Shown in pieces: positions 31,201-40,200 of a stretch of DNA of 64,000 nt (the stretch's first letter is position 1; every line of letters begins with the position of its first letter). A model generated the notes under the pieces. That model did not search any database. It had not been told where the DNA came from and saw only the letters and a list, made by a program, of their open reading frames with translations. The stretch comes from Hormiphora californensis. Its lineage: Eukaryota > Animalia > Ctenophora. The stretch spans positions 5,022,001 to 5,086,000 of the forward strand of contig CM035358.1 of NCBI GenBank assembly GCA_020137815.1. The letters are read 5' to 3'. The translations under genes were made by a program, and so were the position numbers.

Positions 31201-34200
31201 CAGACAGACAGACAGACAGACAGACAGACAGACAGACAGACAGACAGACAGACAGACAGACAGACAGACAGACAGACAGACAGACAGACCTACAGACAGA
31301 CAGACAGACAGACAGACAGACAGACAGACAGACAGACAGACAGACAGACAGATAGATAGACAAACAGACAGACAGACAGACAGACAGACAGACAGACAGA
31401 CAGACAGACAGACAGACAGACAGACAAACCTGTGATTTTGCTGTTGATGGATCTCCAATCAACATGATATTGATGTCTCCTCTGAGACGTGTTCCATTTT
31501 CCAGAATCTTCTCAACACCTCCCAGCAGCAGGCAAAGGACAGCCTTTTTGATGTATTCGTGCCCATGAATAGAGGGGGCGAGAGATCGGGCCAACATTTC
31601 GAACACGTTACCTCGTTTTTGCTACAAAAAAAATTGTTGATCACGTAACGTCAAATCCGAGTTCATTAGAAAGTATACTAGTCCAAAGTGTGTGGAAAAA
31701 AGAGAAAAGGAAGATTGAAGGAGAGAGATATGAAAGAAGAAGTCAGAAGAGAAAGTCCTAAAATGGTAAAATTACAGCATTTTCATTTTTCAATCAGGGC
31801 TTGATGGGTACCATTCAGACTAACGTGCAATATCAACATACCCCAATTCCCCGACTCTGATACATGTCACTACTATGATCAAGTCTCAATCTACCCAGTT
31901 AGATGGCACCTATTTAGTGGCTATTTAGTGGCAATTTAGTGGCTATTTAGTGGCTGATATTTACCTGACTGAATTTCTTGATCTTTGAAATGTCCATGGC
32001 AGAGAGAGTTGGATTATCATCTACATTGAGGCACTTGATGTTGTTACAGATTAGAATGGTGCGAAAGGTGCAGCTGCTGAACCCTTGTTGTTTAGAAGGG
32101 AGACACCGGTATGCTCCGATAACCTGGACCCTGATGAAAGTATGGAATTGTTAGGAATTATGATCACGGTGCACTAGAAGAGTCATCAACCCAAGCTAAA
32201 TAATGCAGGAGACCTTCTTAAACCACCATACGGTTAGCAATAATTACTACCGTGTGATTGGTGACGGTTACATAGCACTGGTTTTTAGAATAGAACAATT
32301 ACAAATATTACCGCAAACACAGACCGCATTTGCACAGCTCAGTTGATGGTGGCCAGGAAGTGAAAACAAGTTGTAAGACCCGAAGGGCCGGGTGTTGGGA
32401 ACCACAAAGCTCTCCTTAATTTTACTTTTTTCAGTCCAGTACCTATCCCCAAACTTAAATGGCACATATTTCTCTCATTTACCTGTCTCCCGGTTTACAT
32501 TTGTCAACAATATCATTATCACAAATCACGTCCATAGACCGGGGCAGTTGACCGGCGGGTGATTTCTCAGGCATTTCCTGGATTGTTACTGTCTGGTGAT
32601 TCTGGTAGATACACTTTCCTAGAAAGGGAGGGGGTTAGATACACTTTCCTAGAAAGGGGGAGGGGGTTAGATACACTTTCCTTGAAACAGGGGGGAGGGT
32701 GTTACCCGGTGTCCCAGGAGTTCATTTTGGCCGGAAATGGCCGTTTGGCTGCGGCCGATTTGGCCGATTTTTTCGTTTTTGATTTTTGACCAATGGTCTA
32801 TGTTTTTTTTGTCTGGCTCGTTTTTGACTCCGAAAAATGGACACTTTTACATTTAGTCAATTTTGGACAACTAAATAATGCCAAATTAACGAAATATTCC
32901 GAATTTATTAATAAAAAAGCATAATAACCGCTTTTATGACTCTAAAATTCGAATTACTCGATCCGCGGGGTGCATGCCGGTGACGTGTTTGCAAAAACCT
33001 GTCCTATTCCGTCAATATTTAATATTTCTTCCTGATGTATGGAATGATCTGAGATCTGAGCTCATCATTGATCTCCCCCTTGAGCTCAGATCAGTTCATC
33101 CTGTTGATCTGTTTAAGAAAAGACTAAAGACAAGGTTATTTCAGGAGGGATTAGGATCTGCTTCAGAGTTGTAATCGGAGGTGTCCTATCCTTCCCCTTT
33201 CCCTTGTGCTGTTGCATAAACAATACAACCTTTCCCGTGTCGAGCAGGCAATTCTAGCATAGCAATTCCTTACTATTTCCCTTCCTAGGCTTGCCTAGCA
33301 GTAGCTAGACCCTTTTTAGCGAGCCCCGCCCGCTACACGTCTGTCTGCTTGCTTCCTGAGCGTTGTTAAAAAAGCAATACCGTTAAAATGATAAAACGTG
33401 CAGTGTTGGTGCAGCAGGGCAAGTTATTACCTAGAACGTGATATATATTACTTAGTACGTGATTGGTAGCCCCTGTACGAGTGCAGATCGGAAGAGACCG
33501 GTCTTTTTTGGCCTACATGTATGAATTGCCATGCACTATTGCCATGCATTAAATTTGCCATGCACAGTTTCAACAGTTCTTGGAATAGAAACGATCCTTG
33601 TGTTTCAGTACACGTTCATAGTTTTTCTCAATACTGATAGTATTCCTTGTAATAGTACATATTACTAACACAAGGAATCACATGGCTTTGTAACTGGACT
33701 CTAATTAGACACCTCATCAGCTTTACTAGCTCACATATATCAGTGTCTAATTAGAATTGAGGGTGGTTGCCTTGGTAACAGAGTCTTTTTCGCGAGAGTT
33801 GCTCCAGGTCTCTCTCGCGAGAGTTGCTCCAGGTCTCACGAAAGTGTCGCTGAGTTCGTGAAAATGGTGTGCGACGTGATCCTGACGTAACAAATCACAA
33901 TGCTCACGGCTTGGACAGTTGATTGAGATGTGTGTTGAATGTTGATTATTTAATTTTGCTGCATCCATGCAAATATGCTGTGAGTTATACTCGCACTTTC
34001 GCAACATATCGGCCGGCCCTGGGTCTCCTCACTTTATTCTATCATATTATGTCTATGGTAATTCTGCTTGATTCGTGATTCTCCTTACATCTTCTTCAAC
34101 ATCTCCTGTCTGTCTCCTTACATCTTCTTCAACTTTTCTAAAACTGACCTTCTATTCAGTACAGCTATTTTTTACGGTTCAGACCTCGGGCGAGCGACGA

Positions 34201-37200: not shown

Positions 37201-40200
37201 GAATCACGTGAGCTACTTTTTGAAGCTCTCAGATGCGAAAAAATGGCCGAAAATCGGCCATGAGACAATTTGGCCGACGGGAATGGTATTCCCGTATTCC
37301 TCTATTTGGGACACCGGGGGGTGTTAGAAGCTGTTGAGACGCAACGTCGGGCGCTAATGGGTTGTTGTTGTTGTTGTTGTAAGCGCCTCCGCTTCCGGTC
37401 CTCTACTTGAGATTTTATCCCGTCCGGCAGCCAGTTCCTCACGCCCGAGGTGGACGGAGCTCAGGTTCCAGAGTTTCCTCTTTCCCCCGGGAGAGTATTC
37501 TTCCTCCGTCTTATGTCTATGGATTTAGAGATAAGGGTGGAATCGTCTCCCATAACTGTCTTGACAGGTCTCATGAAGAGGGCCGCACCAGCACTGTTTT
37601 CACATTGTGCCAGTCTCGGATATCTCCCGCGACCCCTGGTGAGTGGTATCTCAACATTGATCGTTTTCGATGTGGCCTTGGCTAGGACAATTCGGACACT
37701 CCATTGACTATGGCACCTTTATAGATTTTGCGCTGCCAACCTCTGATTTGTAATCAGTACTCCATGGGGGTTCATGGAACATCACTTTTTGTTCATGATG
37801 CAGATGCAGCGTCCGGCCGTTCATGGGGTAATTAGGGCAGGTTCCTTCCCAAAACGGAACTCTGGCGTGTAGAATGTTTAGAGGTTTCGGTATCTATGTG
37901 CGTCACTCATAGAAATTTGTTATATAGTGTGGGATGGTGGTTTGAAATATGGAGGGTTATTATGGAGGGTTATCTGAACAGTTTGCTTTTGTGTATTAAT
38001 TGGGTGAATTTGTTCCAGTCAAGGTTCTCGTCTCCATAGATTTCCTCAACTACATTTTGGTAGTTTAGTCTGTATCTAACCTCATCAAGTCTGGGGCAAT
38101 ATATGATGACATGTTCTGAGTTCTCTTTCGTGTTGCAGAGGTCGCATTTTGGGTTAATTTTTGTATCTTGGTGATGTTGGGAGGCCGCGAGGTTGTTTTG
38201 GCCCGAGATTGCTAGTGTTAGTTCTCTGAGCAGTATTTTATCAGTGACCTTTATGGGATTTTGTATTAGCTCTGTTACTATGGCGGTTGTGAATCTGTTG
38301 TATTTCTTGTTTATCAGGTTCGTCGTATTTCTTGTTTTTAGATATTCTTTGATCTTGTTTTTGATCTGGGAGGTATTTAATCCTATGCCATTTTGAGTAC
38401 TTGGGCTCGCTGCCGCTGCTTCTTTTGCCAGTTTGTCTGCTTTTTCATTTCCTGCGATGTTGGCGTGGGCTTTGACTTTTTCTATTGTTAATGTGTTTGA
38501 TCTTTGGAGTTCGTGTAATTTTGATATTGTTCTGGTTAGTTGTTTGGAACAACTTAACTTCCCAAAGATTCTGTTTATCGTTGTTTGGGAGTCTGACTTA
38601 ATTATTATGTTATGATTGGTAATTTTTTTGTTGAGGAGGTGGTCGGCTACTATTTCGATAGCCTTGAGTTCGGCTTGGTTAATAGTGTTTTCTGGTGCAA
38701 GGGGATATTTGAGTTCGCATACCTCTTCGGGGAAGTATATTGCTGCGCCTGCTCCCGTAATTTGCTTGTAAGGTTTTTTGGTTTTGATTACTGATCCATC
38801 GGTGTATGCCACTATTTCTTTCCATTGGGGGTAAGGGATTCCTTGGATCACGTTAATTGGAACTGGAGCTGAGTTGTCTATATTTCCTGTGGTTATTCCT
38901 ATCTCTTGTAGTAGTTTTGTCATCTCTTTCGCGTGGGTAGGGAAGGCTCTCTTTCCATGGTTCTGATCGGGGAGCCATCTGTTGTTTGTTAATAGGTGGA
39001 GAAATTCTGCTACTAAGGTCTTTATGATGTGGTTATCTGCTGGGGCTGTCCCTGCCAAGGTGTGCATTACTATGGGTTGAGTTTTGCTGTGTGCACCTGT
39101 AATGATTCTTAGCGCATGGTTTTGGGCAGCTTGGACTTTTTCGTATAATGCTTTATTGTTTAGTAATCGATGTCCCCATAATGTTGCCGCATATGTGAGC
39201 TGGGGCATGATTAGCTGATTGTGTATGAATCGTGCTTTAGCAATGTTCATTCCCCAGTGCTGGGCGAAGTTTCTTCTTAGTGGTCCTGCGATAGCTTTCA
39301 TCGCTGCTATTTTTGTGTTGACGTGTTTTTTGTAGCTTAGGTGTGAGTCTAGTATGACTCCTAGGTAAGTAGCTTCTGTTTTGATAGGATAGTCTGTTCC
39401 TTGTACTGTTATTTTTTTGAGTTTGTGTTTTTGGGTGGGGTTGTGGAATACTACTATGTTGGTTTTGGTTTCGCTAAGTTTTAGGCCTTGTCCTATTGCC
39501 CATTTCTTTATGATGTCGATTTGATTTTCTACGAAGTTTTTCATTGTGTATTTTAGGTCTAAACCTGTGATGATAATTGCTATGTCATCTGCGTATATGA
39601 TGATTGCGTTTTTCCTTATCTTGGGTATTTTTAGGAGTGATTCTATGCAAAGGTTCCTAATGGGTTAACGTCCTGTCACTTTTTCACCACACATTGCATA
39701 TGGCCAAAGAGTGAACCCCCCTCCCCCTAGAATCTACCAATGGCATTACTAAACCGGTTTCACCTCTCCTGATAATCTTGACATACCGTATACAACCCAC
39801 CTGGCCCTTCTCATTACATACCATATACATTATACACCCAGCCGGCAGTATTCGCCCCTCTGACTAGTACATACCATATTCCGTTTCCAGGGGATTCCCT
39901 TCCTCATCCTTCGTAGGGTATCCCCCACCGCTAGGGTACGCTTCCAGGGAGGTCAGATCGGTATACTGTCGCTCCATGCTCTTCTTCGTGGCGGGACAGT
40001 AATGAACACTCTTAGTTACCTTTGGTCGCACCTAGATAACAGAGGGAGTTGAACGAGGAAGTAAAACTTGAGGGCTCAGTTTAATATGCTCTAACCCTCC
40101 TTTACATTTGTGGAGGATCGAGCGAGGCTCTGTACTGGGTTTCTCATTATTACGGTTCCTTCACTTCACATTTTAATTGTGAGAAACACCGGAATTATTG

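Follow-up and report, generated by a model that had tools for sequence, protein, structure and literature searches.

The MCM3 intron and its contents

The window is a 64,000-nucleotide stretch of the Hormiphora californensis genome (contig CM035358.1, positions 5,022,001 to 5,086,000). It contains, on the minus strand, a gene which we take to be MCM3 from its motifs and a first reading of the sequence. One MCM3 intron holds all the coding exons of a sulfotransferase gene, which runs antisense to MCM3. The features in and around this intron are listed below; S1 and S2 are the samples behind the public sequencing runs used for comparison (run names begin with X).

32619..39874, minus strand: host MCM3 intron, 7256 bp, GT..AG ends; the flanking exons join in one open frame
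32697..32704, plus strand: left copy of the 8-bp target site duplication (TSD), GGGTGTTA, exact
32705..32716, plus strand: left 12-bp terminal inverted repeat (TIR), CCCGGTGTCCCA; a contig of run X6 ends exactly at 32705
32705..33024, plus strand: left arm, with GGCC subterminal motifs; low-copy family, about 5-7% off the main S1/S2 form
33025..33333, plus strand: LINE 3' fragment, high-copy; matches the C-terminus of another LINE-like ORF of the window (35% over 49 aa, E 3e-7)
33334..34202, plus strand: region upstream of the gene; paralogous copies share block 33448-33580
34203..34229, plus strand: coding exon 1, 9 codons
34230..34340, plus strand: predicted phase 0 intron, 111 bp, GTAAGT..TTTCAG
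34341..34564, plus strand: first part of exon 2, with predicted membrane anchor, stem and first 90-bp repeat
34565..35357, no strand assigned: foldback MITE, 793 bp, with 317-bp arms and TAG..CTA ends, within the coding frame
35362..36568, plus strand: second part of exon 2, with two further 90-bp repeats, the whole sulfotransferase domain (PF13469, E 3e-14) and the stop codon
36569..37110, plus strand: 3' region; poly(A)-type hexamers lie at 36934 and 36996
37111..37318, plus strand: right arm, with GGCC motifs and the right TIR; its unit is in tandem in other copies
37307..37318: right 12-bp TIR, perfect inverted copy of the left TIR CCCGGTGTCCCA
37319..37326, plus strand: right copy of the TSD, GGGTGTTA, exact
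37362..39656, minus strand: 5'-truncated LINE with the end of a reverse transcriptase, RNase H and a 564-aa open frame; separate from the TIR element

The intron has the boundaries claimed for it in the original prediction. Subtracting the TIR element and the LINE leaves 331 bp, against an earlier claim of about 330 bp. The LINE has its own duplication of 8-10 bp, at 37354 and 39657; an X5 contig continues past 39657.

Ends of the element

The 12-bp TIRs and the perfect 8-bp TSD are present at both ends as predicted, and 4614 bp lie between the two TSD copies. Among 14 TSD lengths tested, 8 is the sole match. In 40 shuffles of dinucleotide type, no perfect 12+8 structure arose within 20 kb, and about 0.003 per window are expected analytically. 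The boundaries are thus real and beyond chance. GGCC-type subterminal motifs, also predicted, number four in the first 96 bp and three in the final 99 bp; the density across the window is 0.18 per 100 bp. Beyond the TIR and these motifs, the two arms have little in common.

The element carries no transposase-sized ORF other than the sulfotransferase (ORF list; three ORFs scanned against Pfam), as had been claimed, and no transposase was seen. The exact 24-base pattern of each end had no match in metagenome contigs.

Termini of hAT elements begin with YA and those of P elements with CA. The ends described here begin with CCC; the element is therefore filed under neither superfamily. Its 8-bp TSD does agree with the length of about 8 bp given for hAT or P in the accessible part of the literature (PMC3706591). 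A piggyBac assignment, suggested by the CCC ends and by TTAA in the empty allele as read, is ruled out by the filled site, which has no TTAA duplication.

The sulfotransferase gene

The protein has a PF13469/PF00685 domain with both of what we take to be the PAPS-binding motifs, and a membrane anchor is predicted from a hydrophobic stretch. It shares the domain with CHST15-like sulfotransferases of the ctenophores Bolinopsis microptera, Mnemiopsis leidyi and Pleurobrachia bachei. A tree of 61 sequences, none of them a named vertebrate CHST15, places it among ctenophore proteins only, in a group with two from P. bachei (support 0.999). It sits on a long branch, with at most 43% identity to anything found. 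"CHST15-like" is an automatic label, and assigns a substrate by name only.

The single clear intron (34230-34340) has been retained, which argues against a retrocopy; indels of other copies fall within it (34286-34290). The original prediction described about 1.5 kb of upstream DNA. Upstream DNA is indeed present, but this length includes the 320-bp element arm and the 309-bp LINE 3' fragment, which is presumably CR1/L2-like. In X6 the LINE fragment is deeply covered, with loose ends at positions 33069 and 33333. Joints within the upstream region of other copies lie at 33495-34110, 33539-34043 and 33579-34024.

The PAPS loop reads K-C-A-T-T. Its alanine was considered as a lesion of the MCM3-intron copy and rejected, since it occurs in 11 of the 136 motif-bearing relatives (among 155) and is kept in the listed variant too. 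A sequence search of PDB with the protein gave two distant matches; Rfam gave none, and none of 50 candidates passed a search for shorter proteins.

The foldback element and gene integrity

The coding region is interrupted for 793 bp by a second, small element: a high-copy foldback transposon. Its 317-bp arms are 96% complementary, and it is flanked by a 4-bp duplication, AGTA, at 34561-34564 and 35358-35361. Its depth is very high, and contigs join both of its ends to other flanks. Academ-type MITEs have TAG..CTA ends, long TIRs and a TSD of 3-4 bp; the inner element, with TAG..CTA ends, 317-bp arms and a 4-bp duplication, is a candidate of this type. The end of one X6 contig at 34564 resembles a MITE junction, but a variant 30 bases upstream (34534) explains it, and it carries no information on the MITE in other copies.

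The MITE breaks the frame between two of the 90-bp coding repeats. Unless it is spliced, the frame stops after 128 codons; without it, the frame is open for 485 codons. The gene copy in the MCM3 intron is therefore probably disabled, judging from its reading frame. The original prediction of a complete, intron-containing gene stands as to the coding exons and the intron, not as to an intact frame. Its further suggestion, of a family that may spread a glycan-modifying enzyme, is not established for a working product: a MITE interrupts this copy, and no contig links an end to the gene at a second locus.

The MITE may instead be removed from the RNA as a new intron, so that the nested copy makes a working enzyme. 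There are 120 GT-AG pairs around the MITE that would leave an open frame; the MITE sits in the repetitive stem rather than the catalytic domain, and the catalytic exon contains no stop. Against this, the 17 donors concerned agree with GTAAGT at four of six places at most. Use of the GT and AG contained in the duplication would shift the frame by one base (worked out by hand), and a long hairpin is the predicted fold of the MITE (-600 kcal/mol). Such splicing is accordingly unlikely. Run X15, guessed to be RNA, yielded two short pieces only, both on repeats; it is silent on expression.

An MCM3 intron without the element

Of 15 public sequencing runs listed, four were compared with the window (X1, X5, X6 and X15), leaving out the small-share metagenomes X7-X13. 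In three of the four (X1, X5 and X6, from samples S1 and S2), contigs join 32700 to 39665, with depths of 65, 175 and 505 respectively. The MCM3 intron thus exists without the TIR element and without the neighbouring LINE. The claimed insertion is real and polymorphic; in neither sample was a sulfotransferase gene seen in this intron without the TIRs, which the original prediction had named as a refuting result. In X6, the depth of the joint equals that of the flank (489), and S2 therefore looks empty on both chromosomes. Several S1 contigs show no differences from the window, and S1 may be the same animal as the source of the window.

The empty intron is about 312 bp long, within 19 bp of the 331 bp predicted. 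As read, it is two bases shorter at the target and has four letters before the LINE site where the window has 21. An empty allele was thus found in other samples, as the original prediction proposed to look for, but it is not the exact pre-insertion haplotype with a single base-perfect TSD. Excision is an unlikely origin of this allele, because the LINE is absent from it too.

The inexact empty site would also suit an old nested gene that never transposed, the short allele being a deletion and the end repeats arising by chance or from two unrelated small elements. The scant similarity between the two arms points the same way. However, the exact 8-bp duplication abuts both TIRs, and the short allele is common to two samples from separate studies at nearly the predicted length; this history is very improbable. 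A stitching of a paralogous locus into the MCM3 intron during assembly is more improbable still. Among the contigs listed for S1 and S2, none spans the filled junction, which would fit such an error. Mis-joins do not, however, make an exact TSD with TIRs, nor a second clean duplication around the LINE.

Copies elsewhere in S1 and S2

S1 and S2, though empty at MCM3, still contain both the gene and the left end, at depths several times that of the flank, so related copies lie elsewhere. Gene contigs of X6 have depths of 1488 and 1554 against 489-505 for the flank, bearing in mind that contig depth is not copy number. The X6 contig that stops at the first TIR base (depth 1306) does so as a contig would at a branch point leading into several flanks. 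The left end of the element, at least, thus has the other copies that the original prediction called for.

At the right, an X5 contig (36792-37111) connects the 3' region with position 37111, which lies 207 bp short of the right end, and joints from 37221 back to 37111 in X5 and X6 show the right-arm unit in tandem. At the left, an X1 arm contig (depth 316) continues with related letters to a projected end at 33055, within one base of 30 letters into the LINE fragment. Arms of the family would then abut the same LINE fragment. Among the contigs listed, none connects the left arm with the gene: cover is absent at 32968-33171 in X1 and from 32900 to about 33068 in X6, and this hole decides neither way. 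The contigs compared contain no second locus with an end linked to the gene and no second TSD, and none of those showing other copies identifies a donor locus.

Origin of the nested gene

It is likely that the 4614-bp segment is a non-autonomous cut-and-paste transposon and brought the sulfotransferase gene in as its cargo, in a copy that the MITE has likely disabled. An element of the low-copy family would first have taken up the gene as DNA elsewhere, together with its intron and upstream region. A transposase acting in trans, with the TIRs and GGCC subterminal motifs as its recognition sites, would then have placed the unit in the MCM3 intron; the loaded element would in this way have moved between loci. 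The insertion step is represented by the 8-bp duplication and the empty allele, both observed. The foldback element, with its own duplication, broke the frame at a time that the data place either before or after the jump. The product of an intact sister copy is predicted to be a membrane-anchored, Golgi-type glycan sulfotransferase. In favour of this account, six of the eight differences listed for the catalytic part are synonymous where 22% is expected (the listing covers 40 variant rows, with 222 beyond it).

Alternatively, a cargo-free element may have occupied the MCM3 intron first, and a later break in it may have been repaired by copying the sulfotransferase locus; the gene itself would then never have transposed. 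Gap filling of this type is the usual route for single-copy animal Pack-TIRs in the accessible text of a recent survey (PMC8277862). The left arm of the window differs from the main family form at no fewer than 10 of the sites listed, while three X1 contigs match the cargo with no differences; a divergent arm beside cargo that is in parts identical to an S1 haplotype also fits recent copying into an older element. The lack of a contig bridging end and gene at a second locus is in keeping with this. However, the joints listed (15 of 41) include no filled allele without cargo, and the alleles seen are wholly empty. Captured pieces in the same survey have a median of 224 bp (PMC8277862), against more than 3 kb here, and the X1 arm contig appears to enter the same LINE fragment. 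Capture in place is thus quite unlikely, and arrival as cargo remains the preferred explanation.

More tentatively, a whole fast-evolving sulfotransferase subfamily may live inside this transposon. Every copy would be bounded by its ends, with no transposon-free parent; copies would vary in number and place between animals, and selection would keep some working. If so, ctenophores have a glycan-modifying gene that is mobile and varies in copy number, and their nested genes have an active source in cargo transposition.

Comparison with known systems

Like animal Pack-TIRs and plant Pack-MULEs, the element has host DNA between TIR ends, with a TSD (PMC8277862, accessible text). The TIR ends flank internal sequence on both sides and the left end recurs in other samples, the ends being known without a consensus element. 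The TSD is an exact 8 bp, although the empty allele is not base-exact. What lies between the ends is host DNA, copied as DNA rather than as a retrocopy: it has a sulfotransferase domain and ctenophore relatives, and keeps its intron and upstream DNA. By analogy, the element appears to work like animal Pack-TIRs rather than as a new kind, and to be closest to Ssk-FB4 of Drosophila melanogaster.

Ssk-FB4 is a non-autonomous TIR element with a nearly whole intron-bearing host gene (Tan et al. 2021, PMC8277862). It resembles the MCM3-intron element in carrying upstream DNA with that gene, in being polymorphic and, in the accessible account, in having no identified transposase (PMC8277862). The ends differ: FB4, which is MULE-like, has TIRs of about 700 bp and TSDs of 9-10 bp (PMC8277862), against 12 bp and 8 bp here. 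Ssk-FB4 lacks about 200 bp of 3' UTR, is strongly transcribed, has a known parent, and is described at three loci that each have their own TSD (PMC8277862); one TSD is known here. Unlike Ssk-FB4, the MCM3-intron copy is interrupted by a MITE and nested in an intron of another gene.

Animal Pack-TIRs are mostly single-copy and near their parent (PMC8277862). Within the accessible text of this survey of animal TIR elements, Ssk-FB4 is the one population case of whole-gene cargo and the word "ctenophore" does not occur (PMC8277862). The earlier remark that whole-gene capture is seldom shown in animals is therefore fair, but passes over a close precedent. Whole-gene cargo in animal TIR elements is uncommon, and searches of the open-access literature listed no ctenophore TIR element described as carrying a gene. 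The significance of the locus is tempered by the known kind of the element, by a gene copy that is probably dead and by a movement between loci that we infer.

In ctenophores, genes that lie within introns of others number in the thousands (Schultz et al. 2021, PMC8527503). In Hormiphora, 176 nested genes have transposable elements on both sides; this flanking is reported, in the accessible text, without TSD, empty allele or mechanism (PMC8527503). The MCM3-intron element is a good candidate for the arrival of nested genes as transposon cargo in ctenophores. With one nested gene caught with its ends, target duplication and empty allele, this idea is directly testable across the genome.

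The insertion in the MCM3 intron

The 4614-bp segment at 32705-37318 (main element) is a real, polymorphic TIR insertion in the MCM3 intron, with a sulfotransferase gene as cargo. The original prediction of 12-bp TIRs and a perfect 8-bp target-site duplication (TSD) is confirmed by a script run on the window sequence. TIR identity covers 12 bases and then ends; GGGTGTTA adjoins both TIR ends as the duplication, and among flank lengths of 1-14 only 8 gives a match. Scanning the window for perfect 12-bp inverted repeats enclosed by perfect 8-bp direct repeats returned five matches (the main element, an element at 21538-23532 and three within a palindrome at ~1.3-2.6 kb); 40 control shuffles returned none.

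Features of the host intron and main element, in window positions
39874 to 32619, minus strand: MCM3 host intron; flanking exons join in frame
32705-32716, plus strand: left TIR, CCCGGTGTCCCA (script and sequence)
first part from left, 320 bp: left arm
33025-33333, 309 bp: LINE 3' fragment, after left arm
869 bp, after LINE 3' fragment: upstream DNA of gene
9 codons: coding exon 1
111 bp, after 9-codon exon: intron of gene
second exon: hydrophobic anchor, three 90-bp repeats and catalytic domain
34565-35357, 793 bp: inner foldback element between 90-bp repeats 1 and 2; 317-bp arms, 4-bp duplication
3' region: poly(A)-type hexamers, then right arm
37307-37318: right TIR, reverse complement of CCCGGTGTCCCA (script and sequence)
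37362-39656: neighbouring LINE, 5'-truncated, with RT and RNase H; second insertion in the intron, own 8-10 bp duplication

Without the main element and the neighbouring LINE the intron measures 331 bp, as originally estimated. A tandem repeat at 32606-32704 (32-bp unit, 3.1 copies) duplicates the MCM3 splice acceptor and exon start; its upstream units, used as acceptor, would shift the MCM3 frame. The main element's target lies where the last unit ends.

The CCC ends presumably match neither P nor hAT termini. No transposase for the main element was found. Duplications of ~8 bp are made by P and hAT, according to PMC3706591.

Empty alleles in samples S1 and S2

Public contigs from four of 15 candidate runs were compared: X1 (sample S1), X5 and X6 (both sample S2) and X15; S1 and S2 belong to separate studies. 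In X1, X5 and X6 a contig passes from 32700 to 39665 by way of 20 different letters; no such joint was seen in X15. This empty-allele intron is ~312 bp. Since the joint in X6 has a depth of 505 against 489 for the adjacent flank contig, S2 looks empty at the MCM3 site on both chromosomes. S1 may be the animal from which the window came, as several X1 contigs have 0 differences to the window; S2 is free of that doubt.

The empty allele does not reproduce the pre-insertion haplotype exactly. Its target, as read, is 2 bases shorter than in the window, and ahead of the LINE site it has 4 letters against 21 in the window (37327-37361, right TSD to LINE). The latter difference amounts to a third small event, within 50 bp, that sets the window haplotype apart. 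The most likely account is that a non-autonomous TIR element would have had the gene aboard before reaching the MCM3 intron, into which a transposase acting in trans would have moved it. An ancestral nested gene combined with a deletion is highly improbable, and an artefact still less probable.

The sulfotransferase gene

The gene as captured is complete, since all coding sequence is present. The original prediction of a whole gene holds to this extent; the copy itself is probably disabled by the inner foldback element. In public contigs this element has a depth about a thousand times that of the flank and both its ends join other flanks, which identifies it as a MITE. Contigs of other loci join it into copies of the repeats found at 40085-40377. 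The frame stops after 128 codons with the MITE; without it, 485 codons are open. Removal of the MITE by splicing would rescue the copy, and 120 GT-AG pairs around it keep the frame; their 17 donors match GTAAGT at four of six places at best. Such rescue is unlikely, and the early stop and weak donors argue for a disabled copy.

The enzyme stem (34474-35541) consists of three acidic repeats of 30 residues; a 91-bp stretch of identical DNA in two of them suggests that the expansion was recent.

Domain and topology predict a Golgi glycan sulfotransferase. The window protein has its best named matches, at 35-39%, in ctenophore proteins labelled 'carbohydrate sulfotransferase 15-like' (8 matches among 1163 candidates); none of the best 150 from a search of 1.84 billion representatives exceeds 43%. 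In a tree with 60 of 155 collected proteins, the window protein sits on a long branch, and its partners there, at a support of 0.999, are two proteins of Pleurobrachia bachei; a cydippid ctenophore is therefore the likely source of the window.

Other copies of the ends and gene

Contig depth is not copy number and its ratios, from single contigs or single sites, are rough; read in this way, depth at the left end is 1306 in X6 (32705-32794) and 395 in X1, against ~40 for one haplotype there, while the coding region has 1488-1554 in X6 and 109-170 in X1. In X6 the left-end contig breaks off at the first base of the TIR, the behaviour expected of a repeat with several flanks. Within the upstream region, three contig joints leave out 444-614 bp and carry different letters in place of it, a sign of paralogues that have block 33448-33580 in common. 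Among the 40 listed rows of the variant table (a further 222 unlisted), synonymous differences are 6 of 8 in the catalytic part (P 0.002 at 22% expectation, 0.025 at 35%) and 2 of 5 in the N-terminal part. There are therefore sister copies outside MCM3, which look constrained when judged from these differences.

The sister copies may also lie inside TIR elements. An X1 arm contig (depth 316) extends 93 letters, of which the first 30 align with 32975-32992; its projected end, 33055, is one base off the stop expected on entering the LINE fragment. An X5 contig spans the 3' region to 37111, and end and gene depths are alike in X6. However, an arm-to-gene crossing is absent among the contigs listed, the X1 depth is greater at the end than over the gene, and the window arm differs from the main form of its family, while the cargo is close to an S1 haplotype. 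Gap filling could yield this last pairing too. As a rival to arrival with the gene aboard, capture of the cargo in place is quite unlikely. That the sulfotransferase family exists solely as transposon cargo is doubtful.

Comparison with published systems

The main element adds another member to a kind of element already known. In the animal genomes surveyed by Tan et al. 2021 (PMC8277862), 370 Pack-TIRs were counted, their cargo having a median length of 224 bp; the study also describes one polymorphic family with a nearly whole gene, Ssk-FB4. The main element would work in the same way as Ssk-FB4. Strict Pack-TIR membership requires a parent copy. Schultz et al. 2021 (PMC8527503) give 2357 nested genes in Hormiphora, 176 of them with elements on both sides. 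No report of gene capture by such elements in ctenophores was found in the open-access literature.

Other repeats in the window

The second TIR element (21538-23532) is flanked by an exact duplication of 8 bp, GGGTCATA, and has a perfect 20-bp TIR that opens with a G run. Its interior holds a 63-bp tandem array (22303-23279) without any evident gene. The target is similar to that of the main element (GGGT..TA), while the ends are unrelated. The nested matches in the TIR scan lie in a long, nearly perfect palindrome at ~1274-2620, a foldback element. Arrays at 27088-29573 and 58877-59628, ~30 kb apart, have a 163-bp tandem unit in common, and a short repeat of very high copy with sharp ends occupies 40286-40390.
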